From Psammoneis japonica (taxonomy: Eukaryota), in NCBI GenBank assembly GCA_008632985.1, contig QPGO01000340.1, positions 1-51,858 on the forward strand: DNA of 51,858 nt, written 5' to 3'. The notes below the pieces were generated by a model. It did no database searches, had not been told where the DNA came from, and saw only the letters and a program-made list of their open reading frames with translations. Below, piece by piece: positions 19,861-51,858 of the stretch (position 1 is its first letter; the number at the start of each line of letters is the position of its first letter). Both the position numbers and the translations under genes were made by a program.

Positions 19861-20218
19861 GCTTGTGACTTTGACAATGCACGTTGCTGGGAGCATTGCA
19901 TCGCGCTGCGTGCATCAGAGGCAGCTGCTTCCCGACCATGACGAATCTCAACTGGAGGAAGAGGGTCGTGATCAGGATGTGCGACGCGAGTTCCATCCTG
20001 CAAAAATCGAGGATCCTGAATGTTCTATTGTGGCTTTGCCTGAAACACATTCAGGGGAGGAGTTAAACCATACGTGCGTAAAGATAGAAGCCTAAAATTT
20101 ACATTGTTGCTTCTGCTGTATGGGTGCAGGTGCTGCAGGCCATCTGCTGGCTAGTTGGCCTCCTGCAACAAAACTAAACGCACGCGTTGGATTCAATGCT
20201 GCATGCATCACACATTTT

Positions 20219-26200: not shown

Positions 26201-29200
26201 CACTTTTCGCTGCGATTCATTCAACCCATTAAAAACAGACAAAGGAATTTCTTTGTCACTATCCTCGGCAACTTCGACGAGGTTTTCACGCTGCATTACT
26301 TGATGCATGAAGTCGCCGGGTGCCGGGCGAGACATGAGACTTTCAAGAATCCGCACGGTCCCGCTTAACGAAGCAACACGTCGCACGTAAGAAGTTTCAC
26401 CCAGAGGCACGAAATTGTGGTTTTTGTCTTGCATAAACAAGTCTCTGCTTCTCCCACCGGCTGGTCGGCAAACTGCCAATTCCCCACCTTGCTTGTAGAA
26501 GCTAGACTTCAGAAGAAAGACGTCATATGGTCGTGGAATGTCTTTGGATCCTTTCCGGCTATCATCCTTGATGGAATCGGACAGGGATCTAAAGAATTCA
26601 ATGCACACAAGGTTTGACAGCTTATTGAGGGCCGCATGATCCAGCACTTTGAAGTCGATGGTCTCGTCCGCGCTGATCACTGCACGTTTACGGCCGAACA
26701 CCACCTCAATCAATCTGCTAGTGGCATCATCGATAGATTCGAATGTGTTCCCGTCAATGTCCTCCAGGTTCGAACCACCTCCGTCCATGGGATTTTCCAG
26801 GCGAACATGCCCTGCCCGAATGCCGTGTGTTCTTTTGCAGGCATCGCTGCAATACCAAACGTACGGGCAAAGCTCACACTGATGACCGGCCCTACCAAGG
26901 CATATTGCGCACACTGGGCCATCCAGATCTGGCAGAGAAACGAGTTCTTCCGCATCCCCGGTAAGTTCGTTTTCAGAAGAGATCATCTGTACGCCCGGGT
27001 GGTGCTTTTTCAATGCTTTGTCTAGGAGTGATATCCAGTCTAGCCATTTCCTGTACATTATTCCAAGAATTGTGTGAGAAACTCTGGTCTCCTTCCCACC
27101 GGTCCCCAGTCTGGCGCTTTGAATGCTGCAAGGATGCTCTCCATTTCTTGACGGTCACTTCTACTGATTTGTGCAGCATGCTTCCTAGAATCCAATGCGC
27201 GCTGGCATAGGATTGCCATCCTGGTAGCTTCAGGGGAGCTTGGTCCCAGTTGGTCGGCAACCCGAGTCCACGCCTCGGACGATCGAGAGACAATGTCTCC
27301 TAGAGCCATCATGCTGCCGAAAACTTGCAGTTGATTTTCCTTGAGCGGAGCTGTACAAGCTGAGGGTGAAAAGACGCGCGAGACATCAATGAATCTTTTA
27401 CTGTCCGGAATGGGTCCCTCGAGTCTGCTCCCAAAGTCATGAGGTGAAGCTGGCGAAAGTTGCCCAAAGATTCTTTGCTCATGCATGATGAAGTACTCGT
27501 CCCCATCGCAGTCCCCCCCGGCAAGCATATCAGCCAATGGCCGGGCACCTCTGGCACTAAGCACCAACACGTCTTGTAGATACTTGAAAACGTAAGGCGG
27601 TTCCTTCTCTAGTTGCCCTTGGACAGCATAAGCGCGCTGTATGTCTCCAGGCATGTTACACGGCGAGCGGCAGATAAGCACAGAACCCTGCACAGCACCA
27701 TTACCAACTAGTACTTCACCTTCGTCGAGAATACCGTGTTCATCGACAACAGCCTTCATCAAAGTTATGTGACTCTGAAGACTGACTCGGGTCTTTGCCT
27801 TGGTCATTGCCTTCTTTAGTGCGACTAACTCCTCTGGGGAGAAACGATCACCGTTCAGTTTTTTCCCCTCTAGTGTGACCATATTCACGTAGTCATGGGT
27901 TCGTGTCATATCGCATTGAGCCTTTAGTCGGTCTAACCCGTCGTCAAACTCGGAGGCCATTTCAGCACATGCCACAGCTTGGAGGTCCAGAAATGGACGA
28001 GGGGGGACATTCAGATAGTGCATGACGAGTAAAGCCTGGTTGAATATCTTGTTGTCGGTGCTGTTCTTCGCTATGGCAATCTCCTTTACTTCCAGGATCA
28101 TGTGACTCGATCGAAACTTGACCATACTTGGTCTCAATCCAATGCAATCCGCTGGAAAACCCCTTACCAATGACAGCATACCTTTCACCCCACCCATACG
28201 AATCTGTATCGCTCCTGGAACCTTGGAAAGCTTGAAAACTGCTTGAGCTTTCCTTGCAATGTCGATTCCCATCACGCCACAACCGTCGGAAAAAATGTAG
28301 TTATTCCGGATGATTTCTTCGATCGCAATGATTCGACCCATCGAGAGGATGTCTACAGGCTTCGTATGCGTAAACGCCAAACCGATGCGATCGCCAACTT
28401 TAGTTTCGACGATGCCTTCAAAGCAGCCCAAGCTTCCCAAGAACTCATCTCTTGAAAGAAAGGACTCGCAATACAGCCAGACCTGTGCGTATCCCGAAAC
28501 AAAGATTTTTCGTAAGTCACAAAGCCACAACGTCGAAGTATAGGCCCGTGTATGACCATACTTACATTTGGTTTGCCAATGCCTTTGTCAAACAGATATG
28601 AATACTTTCGACCACACAATTCCGGTTCCCTTGCCAACCACGGCGCCAGCTCTGTGTTGTACAGTCTATCAAATTTGACGGAGCTGACAAGGACAAAGCA
28701 GTCTCGAACACGCCATCCCTCTTCCCGTAGCGCTCTGCGACTGTTTGGAACGACACGCGCATTCTTTGTCAGATTCTTGTTATTCATTTCGTACTCGGAG
28801 GGAACAAGTCGAGCGCTTCTGAACTGCAGTTTAGGCGGAGAACCCCTATACTCCGTATCCACTACTATCTTACAGCGATACTCTGCTGTTGGCCACATTG
28901 ATCGCTTCTGAATAATGTCAAAATCATTGTTGTCTCCATAGTCAAGGTCATCTTCTTTAGCATCCACGAAATCCTCTGCCTTTGCCAAACTTTTTGCTGC
29001 TCGCTGCAATGCAGATTCGACAGCTTCTTCCCAAAACTCAAAGCCTTTTCCCTTGTCCATAGCTAGCTTTACTTGGCACAGAGACTCCCAAATCTCATCG
29101 GCGAACAACTCTTGAATCGTCCTGCCCCACTTATCCCAAGAAATGGCCAAAAGCGGTGGGAGCACAATCTGCATGTACACCAAGATCAACTTTCGAGCTC

Positions 29201-29803
29201 CAATCTCAACAGTGCTCTTGATCCCTTCGTACTCTGCAGGGCTCTGAGGTCTCTTTTTGATACGCAACCGATCTGGCGCATCCTTCATGAGAATCGATCT
29301 CTCAAGTTGGAATCGAAGTGGAAAAGGAAGTGCCGAAGCGGCAGCTCGGAACGATAGCTCAAGCCGCGTCTTTTGGGCCAAGATGGCTTGTTCCTCAGAC
29401 GATGACTCGCGCTGCAACTTTTCTAAGCTGCAAAGGCAGCAGCCATTTCACTCTCTTTTTTGGTGCTTCCAACCCCCGTACCAATCAGTGATTCGTTGGC
29501 CTCGTGGACGACCATACTCTCAAACGTAGGGGCATGAGGTGGTCCGTCCTGCTTGGAGAGCGTGTACGTCGGTGGACTGTGATACATGCGTTCACAAAAG
29601 AGCTGCAGCTTGCCTTTGTAGTTATCACTGCTTATAGCGGATGCGGCATTTAGAGCTGCAGTCGACAGTGCGGTTGGATTGGCCAGAACAGGAAGCTCCA
29701 CTTCTTCGGGAAGCTCCAAGAGAGTATCATCATTGTACTCGCCTAGCAGCGCAACAAAGACGGGGTCGTCTCTCGTCGCGTCGTACCAGTGGTACTGCGC
29801 CAT
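20219..29803 (-). CDS. Giant RdRP-helicase fusion protein: dsRBD - RdRP - zf-MYND - UPF1-like helicase - (RelE-like) - TRANK1/UvrD-like helicase - TPR-like - SH3-like - acidic tail; 8 exons, about 3,010 aa
   Basis: Exons 29803-28566, 28482-26133, 26059-25408, 25328-24109, 24031-23478, 23395-23300, 23225-23023, 22939-20219. Introns are 73-83 nt, all phases are consistent, and splicing restores split motifs (GPPGTG|KS, LDTQ|YRM, FQS|VYVDEVQD, AG|DTAQMI). The model needs two 1-nt insertions in short homopolymers (about 29425, AAFAA-LEKLQ; about 27105, PDWG..SHTILGIMYR). Confidence 0.85.
21880..24200 (-). other. TRANK1-like UvrD/SF1 helicase followed by TPR-like helices
   Basis: SRSGTGKT, FITVSPRL, YVDEVQDF, GDTAQMISAGCSF, LTRNYR, ESKGLEFDDV, LRELYVATTRGR, then TPEMWFSRGMELFDEEKFSVAVGCFNAAG, as typical of TRANK1-family proteins. 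Confidence 0.88.
24830..26230 (-). other. UPF1/DNA2/NAM7-type SF1 helicase (AAA_11 + AAA_12)
   Basis: LNESQ, QGPPGTGKS, APSNAAV, ILDEAGQ, VGDPKQL, LDTQYRM, IISPYTAQV, TVDSFQGQE, NRMNVAVTRAK. Confidence 0.95.
26825..26911 (-). other. zf-MYND-like zinc finger
   Basis: CAIC-x7-CELC-x4-YCSDACKRTH. Confidence 0.75.
27040..28700 (-). other. Cellular (eukaryotic) RNA-dependent RNA polymerase domain
   Basis: Motifs KVGDRIGLAFT, FSDGCG, AIQIRMGGVKGML, LRPSMVKF, VVDEHGILDEGEV, RSPCNMPGDI, DMLAGGDCDGDEY (catalytic DxDGD at 27499-27513), and ILGIMYR after the indel. Confidence 0.95.
29415..29623 (-). other. Double-stranded RNA-binding domain (dsRBD) of the fusion protein
   Basis: NYKGKLQLFCER..PTY..GPPHAPTF..GTGVGSTKKESEMAAAFAA(L) matches the dsRBD consensus. 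Confidence 0.9.
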
Positions 29804-33595: not shown

Positions 33596-34099
33596 AACAC
33601 TTGTGTTTTCTTTTCTCTCTCTCTTGCTGTTTCTCCTTTCCCCGTGCCAGCAAAATAAAAAAAACAAGGGTCAGTCACTGTTCTTCACAGATTCTTGTAG
33701 GTGAATTACGTAGCGGTAGTGGCTAATGAATTTGCCGTCATTGCTTTACTCACGTCAATCTTGTTTCTTATGGCTGATGAGTTCAAGTTTCCTGCGACTT
33801 TCTCGGTTTGGGTTCTCGATGCCTTTTTTCTTTTTTTGAAACAACTTATGTTCGGTGATCTACATACATTCTTCTTCAGAATGAATATGTAAATAAGGTC
33901 ATCGCAGTGAGAGTTCTCATTAGGAACCAATCAGATTTCTCCATTTCCATTAAATCTTTGAAATCGTTAAGTGATGTTTAGCACACATGATGTCTCGGCG
34001 ACACTCTACAGTAGGCCCTTACGTACGGTACGACACATAAATGTTTCAAACACGTACAGGGCGCAGAAAATGTCTTTCGTTGCTTCACTCTTCCGCTCT

Positions 34100-37000
34100 G
34101 CCTGAAGGCCGCGCCTGTTTGTGGCTTTGTGCCTTGCAGTTTGTGTGTCGGCAACAATGATGCCTCTGAAATTATCCACCCACAACAGAGACACCCAATT
34201 GCCCGGCTGTCATTGTGGAGCTCTTTGTCTTCTGCTCCAACCTCTTTTGATGGTGGGAGTCTCCAGAGTGGGGGTCCTTGCAGCACACGCGCACGCACCA
34301 TGCACAAAAACAAGGCAAAGAAATCACACCATGAGTGGTTGCAAATGTGGCACAGCACAATGGTTCCATTGGAAACCACAGCTGTTGTTCTGCACTGGAT
34401 TCCTTTTAAGACAGGCCAGCATTGCTGAGTGCGAGGAGCAGAGTTCAGCACTTTCTGGCAACCAGGGTGCACTCTCTGTCGTCCAGTGTCCGTGCCAGCC
34501 ATGGCAAACAAAAGTTCTCTCATTGCCAATGACAGCTCAGCTGCAGCTCAATTTCAAGCAGCAAAGCCAAATTTGTCAGAGGCATCAACAAACTGTCATT
34601 CACGCAACTCTGTCAGCGGCAGCTTGGGGGTGCCCTCTGGCCTTTTTCCTCTGCTCCTGGCGGCATTGTTGTGCCATCAATGCAAGTCTGTTTTTCTTCT
34701 TTCCTGCCACTGAGGTTGCTTCATTGTTGGAGCTTCAAACTTTCCACACCATTCTTGTCTTGATTTGCTGCTTTCCAAGTTGATGCTCAACTTTGACTTT
34801 GTTTTGGAGGAAATGAGCTCCTCTTTTCTTTGTCGGATGGTGGACTGTCAAGTGTGCTGCTCAATGAGAGAGGGTTGGATTCATTGCAGTGAGCCAATTT
34901 TTCAAGGCTCACCAAGCATGTGGGTGTCCTTTGCCATTGGCCACAGAGTTCAAAACAAACATTGCGAAGCAACGTTGCAGAAAGCTCCAGAGGCCCTGCT
35001 CGAGTGCTGCAGACGAAAGAACTGGGGGTCAGGTTCCTGGCTGAAGTTGCATGTCTCCCAAGCACATGCCATGCATCTAACATCACTGTTGTTTGCATTG
35101 GTGAAGTTGATTTGTCTTCCTTTGCTGACAAAGTGGACTGGATTGGCATCAATGCCGCAGTTGCGAGTGGGTGTCATCACAACAAGATGCCAAACAGCAC
35201 GTCTGCTGCCTCCCATCAGAGACCCAATTGTTGTGACATTGGCCCTTCTGGTGGCCGATCAAGCAGTTGTGACAATTTGAAAGAGATGGCCATTGGACTT
35301 CCAGGTCATGTCAAGCAACCTAGAATCCAAGCAGTGCAGATGAGGTGCACACACAACCATGCATTCGTTGATGGTTTGGTGTTGACATTGTCCAGATTGA
35401 CGGGCATCATGGCCAACATTGCTCCATGGGTTCCTGCTGGACAATTGCCCTTTCAAGACAATTTGCACCCAGATTGTCATGCTGCCTTTGACCTCATTGC
35501 AAGATCCACTGCAACATGAAGAATGGATCCATCAGCAGCATTCGTGGCACATCTTCCATTGAAAATGACCCAATCACCAGGGAGCTCATCCAGCATGGAA
35601 TCAATGTGCAGGTGCACAAAGCCATTGATGACATCTGCACAAACTGCATTGCCAAAGACCCAGCTCTTGACAATCTCTTGGAAAGCTGCTCTGCTTGTGA
35701 TCCAAAAGGACATTGAATGTCCAACAAATGGTGGGAAGGACAAGTTCACAAATGGACACCAGGCTTTCCTTGTGTCCACAACCAGTGCAATCTTTCAGCC
35801 TGGGCAGTTGTGCAATGTTGTTGCATGATTCAATTGTGTGCTTTTCATTGAAGTTCAACCTCAAGTTTGTTGAAATCAAAATGATGTCACTCTGTGAATG
35901 ACGTGCTGAATGTCTGTGTGCAATGGCTGCACACTTGGTGTTGGATGAAACTTGCATGCTGCTGCTTTTGACACCATGAGACTCACTGTGTGTCATGCAA
36001 AATGAAATGTTTGGTTGCTGTGTCACTGAGATGATGCCTGCCCAATTCAATGCATTCAAGCAGAAAGGTTTGCATGCAACACAGTCTTTTCACTGATGGG
36101 GGCAGTCACTGGACCCAGCTGACAAGTTGGCAAGGAAGATGTGAAAGTCACAAGTCAAGATTCAGGCAAGTGCCTGCCTGTGTGTTTGGAGATGCCATGG
36201 CAATGACCATCCAAGTTTGACAAAACAACCCAAGTCATGCTGCAAAGATTTCCCTGAGGTCACAGCTGAGAAATTGAGTGACAGCAGCAACCTTGCTGCA
36301 ACACATTCTATTTCCATGAATGCACAAATGGGTTTCCTCCCAGCTTGCATGTCCAAAGTTGCCCTTGTCAAGACAAGTGCACCAGTGATTGTTTCCATCA
36401 ACAAGGAACTTAGCCCATCAGATTAATTGAACTCTGAAAGCAAAATCCAGTTGTTTGCAAAAACTCTTGTGCATCATCTTTGAGCCAAAAAAGGACAGGT
36501 GGAGTTTCACCATGATTGCTGGTGTGAGGCCTTCCTTTGTGAAGAAAAGAAACAACACAACTGTCAAGAGTTGGAATTCTGGTGGGATGCTCTTTGTTCA
36601 AGAACTCAAAGTTTGTGTTTGAGTGGGTTTCTTTGGACAAAACACTGACAGTCCCACCTGGAACAGATTTTGTTCATGTGGAGAATGCAGGCAGACCATT
36701 GACTTCATTCCTTTTAGTTGTGACAGGTTGAAGTGGAGTGAAGTTGCAAGTCATGTGGACATTGGTCTGCCAAGCAATGGAAAGCTGCCCTCTCCCATTG
36801 ATTGCAGTCCTTGGAGTTTCCCAGGGAACTGTTGGCTCCCAAGACATGGCTCACACCACCAGTTGACCATGAAGTCAACTTGCTGCAACCCCTGTCAGTC
36901 ATGACAGGTGGGAACATCTCCCAGGATGCACTTGGCAAAGCACTTGGTGGCACTAAAACAAGGTGAAGTAATTTTCACATTGCATTTTTTAAAAATGCTT

Positions 37001-40000
37001 CAACTGGTGTGTGTCATGCTGTGCAACAACAGTCAGGCAGCAGCACTGTTGAGTGCATCATCAAGTTGAGTGGGAGTGCCCACATGGCAATGTGGCTGTG
37101 TGATGTGACATGAGTGGGAGCATTGACATGGCCATGTTGTGTGAGTGCTGGTTTGTGCCACCAACACAACTGCATCACACCACCATGACCACTGATTGGT
37201 CTGTCTTGCTGAGTTGAGTGTGACCATTGAAATGCATCAAGCCCATTGCAGCAGATGTGGGTCCTTCTGCATGTGGTCTCCCACACTTGGAACAATTCTC
37301 TGAAATCCATTGCAGTGGTCAGTTTCCATTGCTGGCACCTGAGTCAAAAGAGTGAAACTTTTGCCATGGATGTCAGCAATCACAGCATCTGGCAGCTCTG
37401 CAATGGGTGACACACTGGGCATGTCAACCAGGGGCACATTCTGTGACTCAAAAACACCACAAAGCATGCTTGGCTTTGGCATTGAGAGGTTGTGCACATT
37501 GTCAGTCTCTGCTTCAGGCTTTCCATCACCCTCATTGGGTTGTGCAATTCATCAAAAGGGCAATCTTTGAAAGGGAGGTTGTCTTCTCTGGCATGGTCTC
37601 TGCAGTTGAGTTCCAAACAAAAGCCCCCAGCAGTGTTGCTGTCACTGTCATCCCCATCATCAGCATTTCCAACTTGGGACATTTGGGAAAATCTGATGAT
37701 CTCATCATGGTGGTCCATGGGCATGGCACACTTGATTGCCAAATCCGCTTGTTCTCTCAAGCAGCTCTGCAACAAATCAGCTGCTTTGGCTTCATTGAAA
37801 AATGACTTCTCTTGCAAAGTGGTGGGAGGAGGCAAAGTTGACAGGTCAAAGTGGTGGGCGGCATCCTGGGGCCTTTGATGGTGTCTTGTTCTGTTAAATT
37901 TTTCCCATCATGTTGCTTGTCTCCTGTGCATGCATGGTGAAAACACTTGTGCCACCAAACAAATGGAAACATCATGATGGGTGAAACTCTTGAAGGTTGC
38001 ACCGAGCTTGAACAGCACATCTTTCATTTGGTGACTGCAGCACCCAAGTCCAGTTTGATTGAACTCCAAGCAGCTAAAGTAGAGAACTCCATTTGCATCC
38101 ATTCTGACCATGTGAACTCAACAAACAAACTTTGGAGTGCACTTGAAGAAAGTGTTTGATTCCAAGTCTTCACCCATTTCCTCTTGAGGCCTTCTTTGGA
38201 CTTTGTCTGCAGAATGGAAGAGATTTCCACCAATGATTTGGGATGCCCTCAGCTGGGGTCACAACAAGGTGGTCAGTCATTGGCAACTTTGACCACAGGC
38301 ATTTTGTGTGTGCCAAGTGACTGGAGGCAGCACACAGCTCCATTGCCTTCATGTCTAACTGCCTGGCAAGCTTGAAGGTGCTTGTGGCCAAATTGTGTGA
38401 CAGCAGAACAGGAGCGGAATGACTCTTCATTCCTGAGTTTGTTCCCTCATGTCTGGAGCTGTTTGCCTTTTCTTCAATTTGTCACACTGTCACCATGTTG
38501 CCCTTGTGAACCATCAACACAAATGGCAAATGAAGGAACATCTAAAGCAGAACCTTTGAAACCTTCAATCCCTCACATTGTTCTCACAACCACCCAGGCA
38601 TGCATCTGAGAGCACAACCAGGCCTTGTGAAGGACACAAGCTGTTTGTGGTGTGTCTTCTTGCATCCTGCAGGTCCCACACAACTGTCTCCCGGGCAGAT
38701 GTGTGTGTCCAGCCTGTCCTTTTTCCACAATGTGCCACCATGGCAGCACCTTGCTTGAAATGTGTGAGGCATGTGGGTGGCTGTCACTTTGACACAGGAG
38801 AGAGTGTGCTTTCATTTGACAGAGTTGGCAGCACCACTTGAAAGACCCAGCAGAAGGTGGGCTGTGTTTGGTCTGGCCTGGCAAGTGCAACCTCAGAAAC
38901 ATGGAGCGCTTCCATCTGGCGCCCTTGCCAAAAATGTGAGAAGGACATGCTTCTTCTCATTTGAGTGGGAAGTTGCATCAACTTTCACCACATGGCAGAG
39001 CAACATGAGAAAATGGCACTTTTCACAGCTCAATTGTTCAGGCAGTGCCAACAAAAAGATTGTCACAAGGATGGAGATGCATGGAGTCATGTTCATGCTG
39101 ACACAGTGCTGGAACCTCTGAGCAAGCTCCTCCAAATTGCCATGCTTCATCAAACAAAAGGGATGACTGGTGATGCAGATTTCTGTCATGGTTGGGTGTT
39201 CTCTGCTGAGTTTTGACCGCTGCCCAAGATGCAGCAGTTAACATCATCATGACTCACAAAGAGGTGCTGCAACTCAGATGCACCTTTCTTGGGAGGAGCT
39301 TCCTCCTCAGGAGGGAGAATTGGTGCAACAAGATCTTCTTCATCATCAGCATGCATGACATGCTGCATCATTTGCTGATGGGTCAGGAAGCAGTCTTTGT
39401 TTGCTAAAACACAATTTTGCACATGAGCAGTGCCCAATTGTCCCTTGCACATCCACTTGATTGCTGTGATGCTTGCGGATTTGAGCTCATAAATCTTCTT
39501 TTGCATCTCATCCGGTGCTTGTTTGAGGTGATTGCACTGAGCAAGACAGCTGGCTCCACATCAAAAGAGGCAATCATCAAATGAATTGCACTTGATTGAG
39601 ATGTTCCATCCACAAGTGGATGCAGAGTCCAAGCTCTTGCTTGTTTGCTGGTGATGATGTTGCTTTTTGTTGCCTTGTGCATTGTTGTTTCTGTGATGAT
39701 CATCCAGAAAAGAAGGCTTGTGGTGCTTGCCCTTCTCTCCTGCCCTTGCATGTTTTTGGTCTGAGTCAGACTGTCAGGTGTGTGCCAAGCATGACTGACA
39801 CAACACTTGGCTGCTGTGGTTGGCCGTGATCTCAAAACCAGTGGATTTTGCTGCAGCACAGCCCAAATGCAGCCACGCAGCATGGAGTGCATCGCATCAT
39901 CTTTGCTGCAACCTTTGACTCTGTTTGGCTGTGATCATGGATGTTTTCATGTCATCAAAGCATGCAAGCAATTCTTTGTGAAGAAATGGGCTTTGTTGTT

Positions 40001-40880
40001 GGTGGTGAAAGAGGAGCACCATCTGGGCAAAAGTGGGTGGGGGAGTGTTTGCTGGTGACAGCACTGCACAAACTGGCAAAAGGAGAGGGCTGTGCCAGTC
40101 ATCTTCAAGACAATTGAAATGACTGTCAACAAGCTCTTCATGACTTGATGTGTGTCCTCATCCCAGTGTGGCCTCTGCCCCATGGCAGAAGAGGAGGACA
40201 ACCCCTTTGCTGTTTTCATCAAAAGAAGAGTTTGTCTTCATCAAAAGCTTCATCATCTTCATCAAAAGCCATCATGGCAAGGAGGTGCTTGCCATGCCTC
40301 CAGCAAGAGTGCTTGCACTGTCAATGGCATTGGGGCTGGGGATGTGCCACTGGATTCAAACAGGATTTTCCAAGCCAGAGAGACAGGGCAAAACCACAAA
40401 AATTTTGACAACAAACATGATGTTGGCCCGCAAATGTGGACACAACATGCAAAGTGGTTTGCCAAAATGACTGCTCTTGCAGCAAAGTGTTTTCAGGTTT
40501 GCACTCTTTTTGTCATGTTTGCAGTGCACCACCCCTTCAGACATGAATGTGTGTCCTTGGCTTCAGCCTCATCGTGGGTCCCTGCAAATGTGGAGGGTAA
40601 CCCAGAAACCTTGTGAGTCCTGCGTGCAAGTGCGGGGACTCTTCACGTGCATTTTACACCAGAGCTGCAGCATTGCCAGTGAGCCAGCTTGGTGGCTTGC
40701 TCGAATGGGTGGGGGGATTTTGGAGAAAGTGGATGCACACACATCTCATGCACACCAGCACAAAGCAGGGTGAATTGCAACTTTTAAGAACGTGCAAATG
40801 GCCACAGCAGAGCTGCAGACAAAATGCAATGAGCTGCCATCTGTCAGAGCTGAACAGTTCCTCACTTGTCTTGCACAGCA
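34100..40880. mobile_element. Heavily decayed repeat/TE block depleted of both TpA and CpG; family not recognisable
   Basis: No TA or CG found by eye in 37021-37740. Only short Cys/His/Trp-rich ORFs. Abrupt transition from normal composition near 34.0-34.15 kb. Confidence 0.65.
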
Positions 40881-40914
40881 CCCAAATTAGACTGAATGCA
40901 AATGCAAGCCAAGC

Positions 40915-41259
40915 ACAACAAGGATGAGTGCAAGATCAATCATGCTCACTGTAAATGCATGTGACCAAACAAACAAAACACACAAATGTTGTCCAAACTT
41001 GTTGCAAACAAGCCATTCCAGGCATTTTTGTTGAGTTCCAAGCAAAGGCATCGTGCACATGTGATGCAAAAGTGGCTCCAATGCATCCACACAAGATGGA
41101 TCACACTCACTGCAAATGCATGTGAGCCAAACAAACAACACACACAAATGTTGTCCAAACTTGTTGCACACAAGCCAACCTCAATCGAGGCATTTTTTGT
41201 TGAGTTCCAAGCACAGAGGCATCATGCACAAATGACATGACAGTGGCTCCAACACATCC
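40915..41259. repeat. About 165-180 bp tandem repeat, left part (2 copies)
   Basis: Unit contains CTCACTG[TC]AAATGCATGTGA..CAAACAAAC..ACACACAAATGTTGTCCAAACTTGTTGCA..GTTGAGTTCCAAGC..GGCATC..GTGGCTCCAA. Confidence 0.9.
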
Positions 41260-44200
41260 TCTTAGTGGATCGTGTCATTCCCACTTAGATGCAGCACATC
41301 TGTGCTGTGCACTGTGCACTCACATAGAATCAGCACTGGAGCCTGCAGAGCACACTGCAGACCGAAGCACACATCACGCGAGTCGTGTGGAAAATTTTCG
41401 TTGTGATGTTCCTTGTTGAGCTCCAACTCATCTCTAGAGTGGGAAACAACTTGCCCGACTTGATGCCAGAATGACACATCCAAATGAGAATGGCAACAGT
41501 TCCTGAGAATTCAGGACATTCTTCATCATCCCAAACCATGAAATGAAGATCCTTGTCATCACGCTTGCCACGGATTTTGGCACAGAGACCCTTGACGGCA
41601 TTCTCCGACACTTGGCAGCACTTGGTGACAAACTTCTCAACCGTCATCTCCAAAACCTCTTCGCAGCGTAGAAATGACTTTGCACCAACAACAATGACAG
41701 TCCAAAGCATTGGATGACACTTGTCATTGTGTGACAAACAGCAGCCTCGAACAGCCCGCACCTCGCCCGGCAAGAATGCAAAAGCACTTCTGGCTTCGCA
41801 GCAGTTCGATGCATGGTCTTGCCATTGGTCAATTGCAGCCTTGAAATCTTCATGTTTGGTGGCATTTCCATATGCCAGAAATGGGGATCACCAGGGTGTT
41901 TGCGGCATCCAGTGCCCTTTCGGGCTTCATCCTCGCAATCTCACGACAATCAGCACACATTTCTCTGTGTTTGCCATTGGTGTTTCGCAGTGCTTGTGAA
42001 GCTTGCTCATGGCAGTGCGGAAGAGCCCAGTGGAAGAATGACCTTTCCAATCCCCAATGCAGGTGATGGGGTTTCCACACCGGTCCTTTGCTGGAGCGTT
42101 TGTGCAGTTGTGAAGCAGTGGTTTGCCCTTTTGTTTTGTCCTGAACTGAGCAAACTGGGTTGCTGCATCCAAATTCAAAGGAAAAGGATCTGATGGACAC
42201 AAGTCACATGCCGGCAGCATGGCACTTTCAGAGTCACCAATGGGGCAACAGAAGTCACGAAAAAGCCTCCATGTGGGTTCATGCCGTGCAATGGAACTGG
42301 TCGCAATGGTGTCAGTGCCTGCTTCGCCGGTCTTTTTGTTCTTCCCTGCAATTGCAAGTTTTGGTGACGTTGTGTCTAGCTTGTGCTTTGTCAGCATCTT
42401 GTTCAAGCTCGACTCACCAAGAGAGCGGGTTTGCTGCATTATGTTGAATCCGCCGCCCTTCAAAACAACGTAAGATGCCATCGTCGAGTGTGTGTTTTCT
42501 GTCTCGCGAACGAGAAATGCGAGTTTGGGTTGATTTTCTTGTGGCGTGCCCCTCGAGTTTTTGAATGACCCTTTGGACAAAGCCACTTGGGGACGAAAGA
42601 AAGTCAAAATTTGCTTGTCAGTGCACCGGTGTGCACCGGAAATTGTGCCAGTGCACTTGAATTGCACCGCCCCCTTCAACTGAGCACACGTCACCATCTC
42701 AAAATGTCAACCCCCCTCTGGTGCCTGCAGACACAGGGATCTCTGTCAGGTTGTGAGCAACGCTTACACAGACGTGCAAGCAAGGCTCCTCTGCCACTGC
42801 TGACAACACATTTTCCTCTCGTTTCATTGTCGACGACACCGGCAGAGAGCGTTTGCATCATAAACTTTGCCGCTCTGTTGACGACAACGACGTCCGCGTA
42901 TTGGACACTGATTCACGCCATTGCCGTTTGTTTTTGTGGCTGCTTGCGTGGGCATCAGTGTGCTTTCTACGTACGTTGCGATCTCCTTGGGTCCACACCA
43001 CAGAGATCCGATCCATGCTGCCCCTGCGTGTTGTAATGACATCGATTTTTATTTTCATTGTCGATCACCATGGCGCCTGCTAACAGCACCCGTTCGAAAA
43101 CGGCATCCTCTTGGCGGGCCACTCTGTCGTCACTCCAGGCCGCTGTGTCACCAATGTCGGCCGACGGCTCCCAAGTCTCTCCTCCTCCGGTGGAGACTGG
43201 CCCAACATCTGCTGGCAACACAATGGCAGAGGATGCTTTGGCGCCTCACAATGCGCCCATGGCAGAGGACGCAATTGAGGCTGAAGCCACATTGGCGGTG
43301 AACATCACTGCTCCGGAAGCCGACGCGATTCTTGCACAGACGGACACCGCCGATTCTGTGTCAGAGCAGCCGGCGCCACCAGTGCTGCCAAGCTTCCTCC
43401 ACGCTTGCCGCCTGCCCTACCTCCTGAATAGCCTCACACGCCTCCTGGCACTCCCCCGATGCCTGAGGAACCTCCTGACCCTCCACACTCACCTCCGACA
43501 TCGACGCAGGCTCTCCTCAAGACGTTTGAGAGCAGTCTCACATCAGCAGTTGCCCGCATTCATGAACACAAGCGGGCACTAGATGCATCTGTGGAAGAGG
43601 TTTCCAAGCTAAAATGGGAGCTGCGCGAACTCCATTCGGTCACGAACAATCATGCCTCGGCCATTGCGGACCTCAAACATGCTCGTGATTTCAAGCTCCC
43701 ACGAACCGAGGTCCAGACCCAGCTGAAAGCAACTGCGGATGAAGCCATTGCTTTGGCTGGAGATGCGGCCAACGAAGCTTTGGCAACACGTGATGCTCAA
43801 TTCTCAGAAGCTCTCGACAAGAAGATTGTCCCATTTACGAAGCAGCGGAAGCTGCGATCCTCAAATGCATCCATTCTGCTGCGACAACTGCACACAACAA
43901 CATGGTGTCTTTTGTGGCGGAACAAACCAGCCGACTAGAATCCGCTGCTTTGGAAGCCATCCGTGCTGTGGGAGACCACGTCGGTGCAACCCGTAAAAAG
44001 TTCCAGGCTCGGATCAAGCATGATGTCAAGCTTCACATGGATGACCTGGACATCACCCTTGCCCATTTGGACTCCACCAAGAAAGCCACTGAGCAGACAA
44101 TTCAAAATGGCCTCAGTGTGGCCAGTGCCATGGCAGACATCTTGGAAGACTGTGAAAACGCTGCCGCGCCCTCTTCTGCGGTTACATCATCTGCTCCGGC

Positions 44201-47200
44201 CACAGGAATCCAATGTGTCACAAAGGACCACCTTGCGGACACACTGAAGGACAACTTGGATGGACTCCAGGCTCAGCTGATCTCACAGCAAGATGCCACT
44301 CAAGTGCATGCCGGCAAGATCAAACGTGCCACTGATGCATCTGAAGCTGCCAGGCGTGCGGTTGCTGGGGTTCAGAAGGAACTGGGCAAATGTCGATCGG
44401 AGTTGTCGACTCTGACGGCAACCATGTCACCCGCCACTCCGGATCCTGGACCAACGGTTGCAAAAACGCATTGCTTCTTTGTTGAACAACATCGCTGATT
44501 GTCTCATGACCTCGCCCGATCCCACGACATCTCCGGCAACCCCGGTTGTTGGCACCAATCATGCTGCTGCGAGCAAACCAGCCTCCTCATCGGAACGACA
44601 CCACAACTCCAAAACCTTCCGTGAGACCCCCGGTCCCTTTCTCCGCTCCATGGAACCCAACAACATCGCACTGTTCCTCAAAGGCATGCACACACGGTGC
44701 ACCCAGGCCAACATTCCCATCCGGGATCCGGACACTCTTGCTTGTGAGAAGTCCGACTTCTGCAACCCGATGTCAGCAAGCACATCCCATCGTCAATGCC
44801 ATGCGATTGAGATGCACTCGAAACTGGTGCAGGACAACACACTTCCGGATCACCGATTGTGCGAAGGATGGAAAAAGACACACGCAGCGTCGATGGATGG
44901 TTTTGCGATGCTCAATCACCTCGCTGCTCTTGGCCTTCCACCCCTGACGGGCAAAGCAGTCAACACCCCGTCCTGGAAGGGTGACCTGTGTGAGCTTGTG
45001 GTGGAATTCACCATTTGCTTTGCCACCATTGAAGCCTCACATGCCAAGATGGATCCCACTGCACCCCCGGCCTGCTCGGAATGCCAGAAGTCTCTCAAAT
45101 TGCTGGAGGCTGTTCCAGCCGGCATGCATGAACCAGCTCTCCTCCTCAAACACCATCTGAATGAGATTGGGGACTCTGCTCCCTTGCCCCATGATCTGCA
45201 CCTGGTGTCTCTTGTCACACAGATTGACCCCAGGCTTGCTGCGAATGCTGACCCGATGGGCTCCTTGAGTGCATTCCACGGCCGACCATCTCACGGCCGC
45301 CAGTCAGCTTCACCGGATCGACAGCACACCCCATTCCAGCCCCGGAAGGATCTCATTTGTGATGCTTGTGGAGCGCATGGCCACAGTCACTTTAACTGCA
45401 CCAACCCAGCCCGCACTGCATTGCTGCTGGATTTTGTCAAGGTCAACACGGAGAAAGTCACGTCCATTGTCTCTAAATGGCATTCCCACAACAAACGCTG
45501 AAAGGACACACCACGCCTGACTGCCCGTCCATTTGCGGCAGATGTTTCGAGTGACATTGTCGATTGTGTGATGGATGAAACAGCCTTGGACCTCCCATTT
45601 GAGTTGGGTGCACCTCCGGATTTTCTGCAAGCCGGCCGCATGCTCCATCCATGTGTGGTGAACGGCTTGCCAATGGCTGCGGGGCAGATGATCAGGATGA
45701 CACATCGTCTCTGCCTTCCGCTGACTCTCCGATCCCCACCTCAGTTTGTCGCTCTTTCGCATCCAGCATCCCATGCTTTGACCAGCTCCCGGACTGGAGT
45801 CATTCCGGCCATCCTTCCGATCTCGCTTAGCACGGATTCGGATTCTGCGACATCGTGCTCGACACCGGACGATGACTCACTTTCCCTGTCGGACGAGTCA
45901 TGGGCTGCGGCGGTCGAGGATTTTGCCGAAGACCCTCAGGCTGCCCTCCACTGCTTTGCGATGAAATTTGAGTCCATGGAGTCCGTCACTCCTCCCACCA
46001 TTGTGCTTTCCACGGCTCTGGCACTGGAACATGAAACCGCGCCACTGCCCACCTTCCACCGTGCCAGCATTGGGAACCTTGCTGCGGACTCTCCAGTGGA
46101 AGCATCCGGGCAAACGGACACTGGTGCCAACTGCAGTGCCACATCCCAACGACACCTGCTTGCCAACTGTCGCCGTTTTACGAATCCCAAACCCATGAGC
46201 ACAGCATCCGCGGCCGACACCCACACTCACAGCGCTGGGTGCAGGCATGCACACCATCCGTGACATGGACAATTGTGAGTGTGATGTCCTGATGTTTTGC
46301 TGCCCTGGGCTGGGTGAAACCCTGACCTCCCCTGATCACATGTGCAGAGCGTCCAAAGAGCAGTGCAACCAATGCCATGCTTCGCATTTTCAGGATTCTG
46401 GACACGGAATGCCAACGGTGACAATCATGACCGTTCACTTGTCCGGTCTTTTCCCATGGTACGAGCAAATGGCTTGTGGTTTATCCCACAACTCCGCCCT
46501 GATGCACCCCCAACCGACGGTTGCACGGAACTGGAGGGTGCCATGCAAACATTGTGGATGCATCCACCAACATTGAGAGACCTTGGACATGAGTTCGATG
46601 TGCCTGATCCTCCCGGCAAATGCGAACAACTTGACTCTGATGTCCCATCATCCCCTGCGCCCATGGACCCTGTCCCCGAACATCCCAGCAACAGTGAGGG
46701 CCCGTCCAATGTTCCAGAACCACAACTGTCCTCCCTTCAACGCATCACCACCAGCAACTTGGCACCATTGCCTGGGTCACCCTGGCATGCACCACTGTTG
46801 TACCTGCGCCGACATGCCACAGGCATCCCATCATCCACTGATGCCACACCTCATCCCCATCGATCATGCTCTGCATGCAATGATGCCTGGCACAGGCACA
46901 CCCCCATGGGATCCCAACAGGACGACATGGACTTGGACCCAGCGGCATTTCCAGATGGACTGTGGGTGTGTGCGCACTTCTGGGCCGGACATGAAACCAT
47001 GCTCGAAGAAACAACGTGACAAGGAAGGCATTGAGCGCATTGTTCAATCACATGATGGGTGCAATTCGTGCCTGCTCATCATGGACGCTGAGACTGGGCA
47101 TGCGTGGGTGTTCCTTGCCCCGAGTGAGGACCCACCAATTGAACTGGTGGATGCTTTCTCCTGGCTCGGCACAAGTGCACTGATGGCACACGCACGGTTG

Positions 47201-50200
47201 GGGCAGATCAAGGTGGTGAATTGGCCCACTCTGAGGAATTCCGGAAGGTCTGCCTGAAACACGACTGTGTCATGGAGCCTGCCGGCGCGGACGCCCCGTG
47301 GCAGAATGGCAGGGTTGAGACATTGAATCGGACCTTCGGGGCAATGGTTTGAGCTCTGCTGTGCTCATCGGGTCTCCCGGCCACATGCTGGGCCGATGCA
47401 CTCACCCACGTGGTGCACCTCAAGAACCGGCTGTGGCACTCGGCCACAGACATGACTCCACACCAGGAATGGATGGGTGAGGTTCCTGACTTGTCCCATC
47501 TCCGAGCGTTTGGATCTCACATGTGTGCTCGGCGTTCTGGCAAACCGGCTGCTAAACTGGACAAACATGCCTTCCATGGTGTCTTTGTTGGATGCTCGGC
47601 TGCGGATGGCAATGTGCGCCATGTGGATGCCACATCCGGACGAGAGAAGTCTACTCCGCACGCCACTTGTGACGAGGCCCACTTCACTCAACCGATTAGA
47701 CCTCCTGGTCCACAGCTCTCATTCGATCTCGGCATCCAACAGGTTGCACCTCCATCCCCGCCTCCACCACAGCCAGCGACCCCAGCACCACATCCCCCCC
47801 TTGTGCACAACAAAGGCTTGTCTCCACCCTCCCCGATGAGCCTGATCCAGGGTTTGCCGCTTGGTGAAAACGCATTGTTTCCCGAGGACCAATGTCACGC
47901 GATGGCTGCTGCTTTTGTGTCCAAGGACCCCGTCACCCCCGAATCCGTCACCAATGTTGTGATGTCCTTCGATCCGTACGACGACTCTTTCGATGCACCT
48001 TTGCCCAGCCGTGGGTCTAGAAAACCACGATTGGGTTTTGAGTTTGACTGTGACCCCCGCCGCCATCGCCTGCGACTCCATCACTGTCGCCCTGGATCAC
48101 GGGCAGCGAGAGTGCCACGATGGCGATCCGAGCTCAAACGCTTGTGCCTCATCGCAGTTGACACTCGGCCTGTCCACGATTTTGCTGACCTCAACCGTGT
48201 GTTAGAAGACATCAATCCGGATGCTCAGGACATTGTTCTCGTTTTGCCCACGACTGCCGGTCACCGACCTTGGACACTGCAGGATTGCCACAACTGTTTT
48301 TGGACCAGATCAACCATGTCCGCCATCAGCTAGACTCCCTGCATGACCCTGCTCTCCCTTCATTGTACAAGCTCACACGCCGGAAACTCCAGATGCAGGA
48401 AGACTGGCCGGACTAAGAATCGGGTGAATTCAAACAGCTTGACATGTGCAACAGCCAAGGCATGTTTGGGGACCCCATTCCTGCCCCTCCGGGAGCCACG
48501 GTGTTCCCATGGGCATGGTCATGCCTGGTTAAGAACGATCTGACCCGTGCCAAGAAGGCCCGTGGAGCATGCGATGGCAGCCCCAGAGCTGGATTTGTCC
48601 AGACAATGGCACAGACATGTGCAGCGTCTGTTGAGCAACCTGGCACTCGCCTGTTCTTTGCTTTGGCAGCACTTAAGAATGAACGGGTGTGCGGCATGGA
48701 TGTCAGCAACGCCTTCGCTGAGGCTCCTCCTCCCAAGCAACATTTCTACATGAGAGTGGATAAAGTTTTCCAAAACTGGTGGACCAAGCACCTGGGTTCC
48801 CTCCCATCCCCGAGGGCTGCGTGCCACCTGTGCTCCAAGCTCTACAAAGCCATCCAGAATCTCCCCGCTTGTGGAGCATGCATGTGGATAAGATCATCCG
48901 TGAACACCTGCATCTTGCCCCAACCACCCATGAACCATGCATCTGCAGTGGTGCAGTGAACGGCAAAGAGGTGCCATTTCTGTGGCAAGTCGATGATTTC
49001 GCCATTGCTGCGGACTTGGACGCAACATGTCAACGCACATGTGACATTGTGGGTGAACATCTCACCTTTGGCAAGAACAAACATCAGGGCTTGCTCACCC
49101 TGTTTCTGGGTTATGATGTTGAACAGACCAAAGACTGTGTCCGGTTGCACAGTGCCTCGTGCATCAAGAGGATCTTGGCTGACTGTACTTTCCTGACCGA
49201 CGACAAACTTGGCCCGCCTCCCGCCATCCCGATGCCCGGCGACACCTCCCACTCCAAATCCCTCGATGAGGCTCCCACTCCGGCCGACTCCAAGGCATCT
49301 AAAACCCTTCAACAACAACAGGGTTTCTCTTGTTGGAAGGCGTTGGCGAATTGACATGGGCCATGGTTGCCACCCGCGTGGATCTCAGCTGCTTGATCAC
49401 CAAGCTGAGCCAATTCGGCTCTAATCCTGGACAACTGCACTGTGAAGGCATGAAGAACTCTCTCCGGTGCCTCGAGCATCACCCCGACTTTGGCCTTGCG
49501 CACTGGCATCAACAACCTAACCCGACGCTCCCCCATGTTCCTCCTCCACCTCCGATGACTGTGCCCCATGACCGCGCACCGCTGCCCCCTCAGGCATCAT
49601 CTCTTGCCAAACTCACAGGTTGCAAGGACTCTGATTGGGCCGCCGACATCCGACACCGCCGCTCGATTGCCAGCATTGCGTTTCTCCTTGCAGGAGCCGC
49701 AACAGCATGGAAGACCAGAGTGCAACCAACTGCATCAACCTCTTCATCGGAAGCTGAGTTTGTCGCTGCATCGGACGCAGGCAAAATGGCACTGCATCTC
49801 CGGTCTGTCATGGATGAACCATTGGTCTCCCCCAGATGCAAGTTGCGTCGGTGCGAAGACAATGATGCATCCCAGAAGATGACCACTGCCAGCCAACCCA
49901 CCTGCCGCACCCGTCACATTGACATTTGCCATTTCGCTCTACAAGACTGGGTCGAACGCAACTTGGTTCGACTGGATCGCATTGACACACCAGCCAATTG
50001 CAGCGACATGCTCGCCAAGAATGTGGCGCGCATCTTGTTTTTCCAACATTTGGACACATTGAGTGGACATCACTGTCCATCCTACATGCCAGACAGCAGC
50101 AACAACACACCACTGCACTGTTCACTAGAAGAACAGTGCACCCAGACTCACAGGGGTCACGATTCTCCTGGTGTGGGGGGGTCTTGGTGGATTGTGTCAT

Positions 50201-50228
50201 TCCTGCTTAGATGCAGGGATCTCTGTCA
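41260..50228 (+). mobile_element. Full-length but degenerate Ty1/copia (CoDi-like) LTR retrotransposon with 5-bp TSD CATCC
   Basis: TSD CATCC at 41255-59 and 50229-33. LTR starts match (41260 and 50182) and LTR ends match (CAGGGATCTCTGTCA at 42734-48 and 50214-28). PBS-like GGTTGTGAGC at 42749 and G-rich PPT at about 50170-81. Gag ATG 43070, knuckle CDACGAHGHSHFNC, protease DTGANCS, integrase DQGGE and PWQNGRVE, RT DVSNAF and QVDDF, RNase H DSDWA, EAEF, EDN, TRHID. Confidence 0.93.
41370..42700 (-). mobile_element. Crypton-like tyrosine-recombinase element fragment nested in the 5' LTR
   Basis: Frameshifted ORFs (41927-42697, 41330-41773) with WRLFRDFC..GDSESA, FLRCEE (catalytic Arg box), RGKRD (Lys) and GKLFP. 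The C-terminal HxxR/Tyr part is not visible. Family assignment is by motif recall only. Confidence 0.55.
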
Positions 50229-50525
50229 CATCCAACAACAAGAATGAGCACAAGATTAATCACACTCACTGTAAATAAATGTGAACCAAACAAATCAAAC
50301 ACACAAATGTGTCCAGACTTGTTGCATCAAAGCAAATCCAAGCATCATTGTTGAGTTCCAAGCAGAGGCATCATGCAAGAATGACACAAAAGCGGCTCCA
50401 AGAATGTGCCCAACAATGAGAATGAGCACGAGATTGATCACACTCACTGTAAATGAATGTGAACCAAACAAATCAAACACACAAATGTCGTCCAAACTTG
50501 TTGCATCAAAGCCAATCCAGGATTC
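50229..50525. repeat. About 180 bp tandem repeat, right part (about 1.7 copies), same family as 40915-41259
   Basis: GAATGAGCAC..ATCACACTCACTGTAAAT..TGTGAACCAAACAAATCAAACACACAAATG..ACTTGTTGCATCAAAGC occurs twice and is co-linear with the left copies. Confidence 0.9.
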
Positions 50526-50823
50526 AGGCATTGTCATGTTATTGAGTCCGCACTGTACAAGTGAAACGTCATCACGCGCCGCCTGCCAACCACTCAAATT
50601 TTCAAAAATACTCGCACAAATTCGTGCTTTCTCAAACCCCTCACTCCCGGCCGTGCGTGAGGCCCACGATGTAGTCGGCTTCAGTCATCATCTCGCCACT
50701 TATTTACAGGGCCCTACAGCACAAGGCATTGTCAAAGTTCTCGAATATATGTGCATGCGATGCTATGCATTGTCCTCGGCTTGTGTCTACAGTAGTCCTG
50801 CGGAAGGAAGAAGAAGCAATATT

Positions 50824-51858
50824 ATGACATTGACGAGCGAAGGACCTTCGGAGGGACAACCACAGCCATCATCGATACGGAAGGTGCCGATTATCCTACT
50901 AATAGGGTTGTTCACTTTGTCGAACTTCTTTATTGGGATCAGTTGGTACAATGAAAACAGGATATTGTTTGGTGCACAAGCACTCACTTCTCTCGGAACC
51001 GTCGCTGCGAGGTCGAAGCGAAATGAGGCTTCCGCAGAGGAATTCTACTCAAACCTATACGAAATCATCAGGGCTTCCATCCTGGCAAATAAAGCAAGCA
51101 ACCTCCTCAGCTGGGGTGAGAAGGGGGGGCTTCTTCACGATCGCTTTGTGGCTGAACATCCGGCTGATTTTGAGTTTGTTGATCTCCACGGCAGTCCGTT
51201 GAAGTCAGAAGGAATCAAGATAACCGAAGAGCGATCTTCTGTGTGGAACACCACAAATCCGGAAATTGTTTACGAAGACGATATTTGCAAGTCCGTTCGC
51301 AGCTTTTTTCACTTTGGAGGAGTGAAGCCACATGTAGTGATTGCGAAACTTACGTGGGACGGCGGTGCTCTTTCCTCGCATATACCAGGGCGAACATCAC
51401 GATACCCCAATTATTGGAAATTCAAGGAAAATGGAGCTTGTAACATGGACGACCTTGTCGGGTACTTTGAACACCCCAACATGTTGGCCGTAATAACAAA
51501 CCATCAACAATTGTGGACCACCCAAAAGTGCACGCTCTACCATTAGGCGTAAGGAATAGGGTGGGAGTTCTTAAACATTTGAAGCAGCCTTGGTCTCCAA
51601 ACAGGTCGCAGCTGCTCATGGTTAACCACAAAGAGCTTGGTAATCGATTGAACATCACAAAGTCCATATTGAACAAGTTTGCCGGTCTTGGTGTCAAGAA
51701 TACTTACAAGATGGGAACTGTGGATGATTACTTTGAAGAATTAAGACGATCCAAGTTTGTTCTATCCCCATCTGGTCACGGATACGATTGCTACCGCATT
51801 TGGGAAGCCCTGTACATGGGAACGATCCCCATCGTGGACACACTTAATCGGACCGATG
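50824..51858 (+). CDS. Exostosin/GT47-like type II membrane glycosyltransferase, 3' end outside the window
   Basis: Likely start MTLTSEG (50824) and TM segment VPIILLIGLFTLSNFFIGISW. After a 1-nt slip near 51512 it reads DHPKVHALPLG..YFEELRRSKFVLSPSGHGYDCYRIWEALYMGTIPIV. Confidence 0.85.

Follow-up and report, generated by a model that had tools for sequence, protein, structure and literature searches.

A Ty1/copia retrotransposon in Psammoneis japonica is strongly depleted of the dinucleotide TA, and the depletion extends to a sequence inserted in the element and to the repeats around it. The element lies at positions 41260-50228, on the plus strand, of a 51,858-nucleotide stretch (GenBank assembly GCA_008632985.1, contig QPGO01000340.1, forward strand, positions 1 to 51,858) that we refer to as the window. 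We consider it probable that the copia insertion was followed by DNA-level erosion of TpA to TpG or CpA in the element, the insert and the surrounding repeats, accompanied by decay of CpG. A first-pass annotation had compared the two long terminal repeats (LTRs) of the element and proposed that the TA mutations arose in DNA after integration, independently on each strand. That interpretation is partly supported: it was right in substance, and the LTR pair alone gave it too little support.

Direction and context of TpA loss

The dinucleotide composition of the window is strongly bimodal. The block that holds the element (34001-50500) has observed/expected (obs/exp) ratios of 0.08-0.12 for TA, 1.59-1.81 for CA+TG and 0.29-0.64 for CpG. 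Two other blocks are eroded, at 10001-20500 (TA 0.13, CA+TG 1.67, CpG 0.38) and at 2501-4000 (TA 0.09, CA+TG 1.47, CpG 0.59). These three local blocks, low in TA and high in CA+TG, stand beside normal DNA, the genic remainder of the window, with ratios of 0.52-0.59 for TA, 1.19-1.27 for CA+TG and 0.89-1.00 for CpG. The loss is confined to the repeat blocks. The most extreme stretch of the window is 36001-40000 (CpG obs/exp 0.02-0.10, TA 0.05-0.06, CA+TG 1.87-1.91), which had no Pfam match.

Relatives of the element have far more TA. Searching metagenome contigs with a profile built from ten homologues yielded 78 related loci, all of which have a TA obs/exp of 0.55-0.99; the element itself has 0.13. 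TA makes up 0.65% of the dinucleotides of pol in the window and 3.3-5.7% in 18 relatives.

The direction of change could be read from proteins, because Tyr is encoded only by TAY. We compared the window copy with 512 columns conserved in 14 homologous polyproteins, 154 of which are changed in the window, and took as conserved Tyr columns those with at least 70% Tyr among at least six homologues. Of the 22 conserved Tyr columns, 14 are Cys (TGY) in the window copy, four are His (CAY), two are Phe, and one each is Thr and Tyr. The same pipeline, applied to 15 related loci as controls, found Tyr changed to Cys or His at 5 of 349 conserved Tyr columns, compared to 18 of 22 in the window. Conserved Arg was retained at 26 of 44 columns, many of them as CGN, and there were eight replacements of the CpG type.

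Transitions at TpA affected both strands. One-step changes made up 112 of the 154: 27 were TpA to TpG, 11 TpA to CpA, eight CpG to CpA, four CpG to TpG, 14 other transitions, 44 transversions and four ambiguous. A-to-G or T-to-C changes at TpA were thus 38 of the 64 inferred transitions, with CpG decay in addition. Both products were present, in the 27 and 11 changes at TpA as in the 14 Tyr-to-Cys and four Tyr-to-His replacements.

The A-to-G changes were dependent on a preceding T. At the first codon position of conserved Ile, Met and Thr, a change of A to G was seen in 13 of the 14 cases preceded by T and in 3 of the remaining 32. The counts for conserved Lys and Asn were 1 of 4 and 0 of 21, giving 14 of 18 after T and 3 of 53 otherwise when the two groups were pooled. 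We also calculated the survival of each NTAN context as the ratio of the eroded blocks to the genic remainder, with both strands pooled; this control is coding, which biases the ratios somewhat. Survival was lowest for ATAT (0.01), followed by ATAC/GTAT (0.03), ATAG/CTAT (0.08), contexts with one A followed by a pyrimidine (0.14-0.16) and GTAC (0.16), and was higher for CTAG (0.33), CTAA/TTAG (0.41) and TTAA (0.52). This range of about 50-fold far exceeds the bias from the coding control. This order of survival is consistent with T-A before a pyrimidine, on either strand, as the target.

Two LTRs of one insertion

The stretches at 41260-41294 and 50182-50216 are true LTRs of a single Ty1/copia insertion, which spans 41260-50228 on the plus strand and is flanked by a 5-bp duplication of CATCC. 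They are identical at 31 of 35 bases, and all four mismatches are transitions, in three places: A/G at LTR position 5 (41264/50186, TA versus TG), C/T at position 12 (41271/50193, CG versus TG), and CA/TG at positions 23-24 (41282-3/50204-5). Both LTR strings are present in the window as quoted by the first-pass annotation, with differences only of the TA/TG, CG/TG and CA/TG kinds. It had the start of the 5' stretch right and the end, at 41295, one base too far; the stretch is 35 nt and ends at 41294. A 17-mer common to both stretches occurs nowhere else in the window, and with up to three mismatches allowed, 0.37 matches were expected and 5 of 100 shuffles gave at least two, a test that is weak by itself. 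The pairing is secured by an exact 14-mer, the polypurine tract (PPT), the CATCC pair and the junction motifs.

The LTR is 47 nt long, not 35. The 14-mer AGGGATCTCTGTCA closes the 3' LTR (50215-50228) and recurs at 42735-42748, and the 5' LTR is therefore split. Positions 1-35 of the 5' LTR are at 41260-41294, and positions 28-47 (AGACACAGGGATCTCTGTCA) are at 42729-42748, the first 8 nt of which duplicate 41287-41294 with a TG versus CA difference. These two pieces together form the direct terminal repeat that matches 50182-50228. Six contigs from other copies of the element extend to 50228 and then enter different flanks. This divergence, together with CATCC and the satellite phase, places the complete 3' LTR at 50182-50228. 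The LTRs differ by approximately 9-13% and contain 1-2 TA per 47 nt.

The element is inserted in a satellite array. The two copies of the CATCC target-site duplication are at 41255-41259 and 50229-50233, in a satellite that is in phase across the element, and in contigs of the same organism this satellite junction is also found outside the present locus, where a single CACATCC runs into AACAATG (CACATCCAACAATG). The left flank (40913-41259) has two units of this 160-178-bp satellite, approximately 80% similar to 50232-50550; the right flank (50229-50550) has about 1.8 units in the same phase. We rejected a long LTR that would include 40913-41259, as the approximately 80% similarity is that of the flanking satellite. 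Numerous unit-to-unit joints in the contigs show that the satellite occurs at many genomic positions, and one TA, in CTGTAAAT, is retained in all four units in the window.

The sequences next to the LTRs resemble other landmarks of an LTR retrotransposon. A G-run PPT (GGTGTGGGGGGG, 50170-50181) directly precedes the 3' LTR. The primer-binding-site (PBS) side of the 5' LTR (GGTTGTGAGCAACGC, 42749-42763) has a CA-GGTT junction common to three of four complete relatives, the fourth (L010) having AA-GGTT. A complementary tRNA was not identified, and tRNA and Rfam family scans of the window found none.

A foreign sequence of 1,434 bp (41295-42728, minus strand) interrupts the 5' LTR, which breaks off after position 35 and resumes at 42729-42748. 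The insert is surrounded by a duplication of 8 nt (AGATGCAG/AGACACAG), the two copies of which differ by TG versus CA. In another genomic copy of the element, LTR position 22 is joined directly to 42730, so the interruption is specific to the window copy. The frame at 41333-42706 on the minus strand resembles a truncated Crypton-like tyrosine recombinase with two in-frame stops. It had no Pfam match, and its protein atlas feature score of 0.96 to the Phage_integrase, NDC10_II and DUF3504 clusters is a lead only. The insert is probably a piece of a Crypton-like DNA transposon. TA accounts for 0.49% of its dinucleotides. A segment of the insert (41378-41675) is part of a repeat with very high depth (contig depth approximately 1,790, run X2).

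Comparison with relatives confirmed the boundaries of the element. Four complete relatives (L008, L010, L020 and L041), which are 35-38% identical to P0012, the first sequence of the alignment, are like the window element in polyprotein family, in having a long region 5' of pol and a PPT, in an LTR start of T[GC]TTA, and in GGTT.. after the 5' LTR. The relatives have ..TGTGGGGGG directly before the 3' LTR, which begins TGTTAG; the window has ..GTGTGGGGGGG followed by TCTTAG or TCTTGG. At the other junction, the 5' LTR of the relatives ends in CA (AA in L010) followed by GGTT.., and that of the window ends in CTGTCA followed by GGTTGTGAGC; all four relatives read GGT[CT]/GGTT immediately after the 5' LTR. 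The CA end is shared with three of the four. The LTRs of the relatives are unlike those of the window in length (81-95 nt versus 47 nt), in TA content (10-12 each versus 1-2) and in being 98.8-100% identical within a pair. An LTR of 47 nt is short even for this short-LTR clade. We excluded three loci (L012, L030 and L035) from the length comparison. Their metagenome contigs start and end with the same 123-127 nt, which looks like an assembler overlap through the LTR or a tandem or circular form and not a measured LTR length. Scans of viral_contigs and metagenome_contigs with a degenerate 30-nt LTR pattern gave no matches. The usual minimum LTR length in LTR-finding programs exceeds both 47 and 81-95 nt, and default settings would miss such elements.

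The coding region has the order expected of copia. A gag-like open frame (44416-45498, plus strand) encodes a CX2CX4HX4C zinc knuckle (CDACGAHGHSHFNC) and had no Pfam match at an E value of 0.01. Downstream is a decayed pol (46100-50090, plus strand) with integrase, RVT_2 reverse transcriptase and RNase H in several frames and with stops; the 14 homologous polyproteins (44-49% identity) map collinearly from approximately 46100 to 50090 by tblastn. The integrase SH3 domain (SH3_retrovirus) is at 47353-48330 (Pfam E value 2.3e-8), upstream of the RVT_2-homologous part, and its position and the collinear matches both place integrase before reverse transcriptase and RNase H. The homologous polyproteins carry PF13976, PF07727, PF00665 and PF25597. 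In the Pfam search of the pol open reading frames (ORFs), only integrase SH3 passed. RVT_2 was not detected at an E value of 0.01 although the 14 homologues carry it, which we take as an effect of TA erosion. Weak SH3 and CCHC hints had pointed to a second copia copy at 16-20 kb; we rejected this candidate because tblastn gave no match there below an E value of 0.1.

Timing and substrate of the changes

The differences between the LTRs arose after integration, as the first-pass annotation had stated, because the target duplication, the PPT and the PBS-side motif show one insertion. The three discordant places are not equally informative. At the first, three of the four relatives start the LTR with TGTTA and the 5' LTR of the window keeps TTA, which points to TA as the ancestral state and to the TG of the 3' LTR as derived. 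This supports a post-integration change of TpA to TpG in the 3' LTR. Both this TA and the one retained in both LTRs are part of TTAG, a resistant context. For the CG/TG site, an ordinary CpG-to-TpG change is the simplest reading, and the site is not evidence for a process at TA. The CA/TG site could have begun as TA or CG and been hit once in each LTR, or as TG that passed through TA or CG to CA within one LTR. The proposal that TA was ancestral at the discordant sites thus stands for the first site, and to require opposite-strand hits on an ancestral TA or CG at the third was too strict, although every route passes through TA or CG. A process at TA that acts on both strands is upheld by the Tyr columns, the one-step changes and the dependence on a preceding T; the three LTR sites, one of them CpG decay, would have been insufficient.

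Comparisons among repeats also gave many CA-versus-TG differences. In seven repeat pairs in the window, CA/TG accounted for 10 of 12 adjacent double transitions, with 4.1 of all kinds expected, and TA/CG for none. Differences between repeats in the window numbered 21 for CG versus TG/CA and 12 for TA versus TG/CA. Rapid decay of TA and CG may resolve slow transitions at TG and CA, half of them onto the other product, and may be the source of the common CA/TG doubles.

Other genomic copies retain TA that the window has lost. We compared the window with these copies at the 40 best-supported of 2,134 differing places, none of which is inside either LTR. At eight of the 40, all in the insert, the window has TG or CA where the other copies have TA, and the reverse was not found. 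CG versus TG/CA differences were 7 against 2, and there were four CA-versus-TG doubles. By summed contig depth, the family may number about ten copies, a rough figure and not a measured copy number.

The erosion is not tied to reverse transcription. Erosion of the insert, the satellite and the other two blocks is as severe as that of the copia sequence. In addition, the TG-versus-CA difference between the 8-nt duplicates around the insert separates two sequences that were identical when formed.

Based on these results, we infer that most of the TA loss took place on integrated DNA. A Ty1/copia element with 47-nt LTRs would have inserted into the satellite array and duplicated CATCC, and a Crypton-like fragment would later have landed in its 5' LTR. 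The element, the insert and the surrounding repeats would then have lost nearly all TA to a DNA-level process that turns TpA into TpG or CpA, equivalent to A-to-G on either strand, and that hits TA followed by a pyrimidine hardest. Ordinary decay of CpG to TpG or CpA would have proceeded in the same blocks, such that both self-complementary pyrimidine-purine steps collapsed to TG and CA. The LTR differences would be single post-integration events, the TA/TG difference from the TpA process, CG/TG from CpG decay and CA/TG from either. The agent may be a DNA adenine deaminase of the ADAT2/TadA kind, by analogy with that proposed for Bigelowiella natans.

Several observations weigh against this reading. 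There is a single polarised LTR site, and its polarity depends on about six alignable bases of distant relatives. At the seven best-supported differences in copia proper, the other copies have CG or TG/CA and never TA; much of the TA loss may therefore be common to those copies. The two LTRs agree at seven TG/CA steps, and part of the loss may predate this insertion, as the LTRs of relatives have 10-12 TA per 80-95 nt and there is 1 here. Tyr-to-Cys changes outnumber Tyr-to-His by 14 to 4 (binomial p 0.03), and still by 10 to 3 with a purine at -1; such an excess on the sense strand would be expected from RNA editing of the element transcript. The preference for T-A-Y explains part of the 14:4 ratio, since every Tyr codon places its sense-strand A in T-A-Y, and transcript editing, or a bias of the DNA process to the non-template strand, possibly contributes. 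(As a gauge of strand bias we rejected the ratio of TG to CA in pol, because its baseline varies from 0.42 to 1.16 among relatives.) Forty-four of the 112 one-step changes are transversions, ordinary divergence from homologues that are 44-49% identical, and some "conserved" columns may not be ancestral. Finally, damage on the T side of TpA would give the same pattern as deamination of adenine.

Some of these points would be accounted for if most TA had been lost before integration, through ADAR-like A-to-I editing of the element RNA, perhaps combined with deamination of minus-strand cDNA, with the copy arriving hypermutated or mobilised in trans and the LTR differences being ordinary later transitions. 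We regard this as unlikely. The sense-strand excess (14 Tyr-to-Cys versus four Tyr-to-His), the TG/CA steps that are alike in both LTRs and the lack of retained TA in copia proper among the best-supported differences all agree with it, as does the usual preference of metazoan ADARs for U upstream of the edited A (10.64898/2026.01.13.699255). However, the sense strand also has 11 inferred T-to-C changes at TpA, the TA/TG difference between the LTRs is polarised as a loss after integration, and erosion is equally strong in the insert, the satellite and the two other blocks. Other copies of the insert retain TA at eight sites where the window has TG or CA, and B. natans lines have acquired de novo changes of TpA to TpG or CpA in integrated DNA (10.64898/2026.01.13.699255). 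ADAR-type editing would leave changes on the transcribed strand only and alike in both LTRs, which is not what we found; given the 14:4 ratio, it may have contributed in part. The argument of the first-pass annotation against such editing therefore holds for the discordant sites and not for the changes that the LTRs share.

Two other explanations have much less in their favor than either post-integration erosion or RNA editing. If nothing special had happened, the LTR differences would be CpG methylation decay plus random transitions, and low TA would be a habit of the genome or family. One LTR difference is indeed CG/TG and the CA/TG difference is compatible with an ancestral CpG, CpG is depleted in these blocks too (obs/exp 0.29-0.64), and CG versus TG/CA differences between repeats in the window outnumber those at TA (21 versus 12). 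This explanation is very improbable and is already contradicted by the dependence of first-position A-to-G changes on a preceding T. Moreover, 18 of 22 conserved Tyr codons are now TGY or CAY (5 of 349 in the controls) while conserved Arg persists at 26 of 44 columns, often as CGN, and TA obs/exp is at least 0.55 in all 78 relatives and 0.52-0.59 in genes of the same window. We give even less credence to the idea that the two 35-mers are parts of two elements or a chance match, and hence uninformative about events after integration. The sequence that follows the 35 nt of the 5' copy is unrelated, and the 17-mer test was weak (at least two matches in 5 of 100 shuffles), but the missing 12 nt of the 5' LTR are at 42737-42748, followed by the PBS-side motif common to relatives, CATCC is on both sides with the satellite in phase, and the PPT is directly before 50182.

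Parallels and consequences

Loss of TA removes TAA and TAG stops, and the region 38000-51858 contains 85 frames of at least 80 amino acids in 13.9 kb, in all six frames. A 679-amino-acid frame at 12330-14366 (minus strand) had no matches among 1.84 billion representative proteins and has only one Tyr; we rejected it as a gene and read it as a stop-free artefact. Pfam searches of 56 open frames of the eroded blocks found nothing below an E value of 0.04.

The genes at 4462-33670 do not have TA erosion (TA obs/exp 0.52-0.59). The large host-like ORFs there are all on the minus strand, long and uninterrupted, and include a bacterial-type beta-propeller protein (PF09826, E value 2.8e-108) and a GLUG-motif protein. 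A region with helicase, MYND and RNA-dependent RNA polymerase similarity (24108-29447) is divided among five overlapping frames, possibly because of short introns or frameshifts. In the protein database, the best matches of host ORFs were only 32% and 47% identical, with hardly any names among them, and the protein atlas offered generic eukaryotic RNA-dependent RNA polymerase clusters only. As nothing exceeded 47% identity, the source is probably not the annotated B. natans strain.

The closest parallel is in the alga B. natans. Among the literature matches, the TA-to-TG/CA direction was described in one paper only, the 2026 B. natans preprint (10.64898/2026.01.13.699255), the others being on fungal repeat-induced point mutation (RIP), with the opposite direction. 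In B. natans mutation-accumulation lines, 230 of 231 changes in two integrated viral regions were A-to-G or T-to-C, all on TpA (Mettrop et al., bioRxiv 10.64898/2026.01.13.699255). The genome has 124 clusters with a TpA rho of at most 0.43 and a CpA+TpG rho of at least 1.52, reverse transcriptase and DDE endonuclease domains are over-represented in TpA-poor coding sequences, and an ADAT2-like DNA adenine deaminase was proposed as the agent (10.64898/2026.01.13.699255). By the thresholds of the preprint, the window qualifies as such a cluster. The two cases are alike in nearly exclusive TpA-to-TpG and TpA-to-CpA change, in having reverse-transcriptase-bearing sequences among those eroded, and in local blocks (TA obs/exp at most 0.43, CA+TG about 1.5 or more) beside normal DNA (10.64898/2026.01.13.699255). 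They differ in that the B. natans events were seen de novo in lines, in single-copy inserts of nucleocytoplasmic large DNA viruses and virophages, whereas those of the window are deduced from sequence alone (10.64898/2026.01.13.699255). The targets in the window are also unlike those of B. natans: an LTR retrotransposon, a Crypton-like fragment and a satellite. Depletion of CpG in the same blocks and the T-A-pyrimidine preference are further differences from the preprint, the main text of which has no mention of CpG, LTR or retrotransposon and uses "strand" in other senses only (10.64898/2026.01.13.699255; its supplements may hold flanking-base or strand data). What is new relative to the preprint is this preference and the CpG loss in the same blocks, the polarised protein-level test, and the sparing of adjacent bacterial-type genes.

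Other hypermutation systems resemble the window in part. Fungal RIP is likewise a dinucleotide-specific transition hypermutation that is limited to repeats or foreign DNA and destroys reading frames, but it turns CpA into TpA and enriches TA, whereas in the window TA is destroyed and CA and TG are enriched (PMC2621366, PMC7296669). The C-to-T change at CpA with TpA enrichment that marks RIP is absent: TA obs/exp is about 0.1 here and the polarised direction is TA to TG/CA. Nothing in the window points to meiosis or to the sensing of duplications. APOBEC3 and ADAR enzymes also make deaminase-type, context-dependent transition clusters in retroelements, for which LTR comparison gives the timing, but they act on RNA or minus-strand cDNA, on one strand, and their changes are copied into both LTRs (PMC12548423). 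In the window, unlike these systems, both strands are hit, one LTR difference at TA is polarised, and sequences other than copia are hit too. Decay of CpG by deamination of 5-methylcytosine turns a self-complementary pyrimidine-purine step into TG or CA depending on the strand, and so gives CA-versus-TG pairs between copies. It is like the window in its TG/CA products and in the CA-versus-TG repeat pairs, and explains a minority of the changes here (12 of 64 inferred transitions, versus 38 at TpA).

The window is an independent, sequence-level case of TpA-directed hypermutation in which the direction of change is established. With it, the range of targets comes to include an LTR retrotransposon, a probable DNA transposon and a satellite, with bacterial-type genes in the same window spared. 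As TAA and TAG disappear, eroded blocks become full of long frames without meaning, while true domains drop below Pfam thresholds. Gene callers and transposable-element annotators would therefore misread such blocks and over-predict genes.

It is conceivable, although we hold this only tentatively, that DNA adenine editing serves a second eukaryote, besides the annotated B. natans strain, as a repeat-directed defence, in effect a reverse RIP. Such a defence would recognise T-A-pyrimidine and erase TA from chromosomal retrotransposons, DNA transposons and satellites, in silenced blocks that also undergo CpG methylation decay. The suggested T-A-pyrimidine motif and link to CpG decay are clues to the enzyme and to the choice of targets. 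The T-A-Y preference appears to resemble the U-A-C anticodon-loop context of TadA and ADAT2. If true, this likeness would link the enzyme to a tRNA deaminase that has come to act on DNA.

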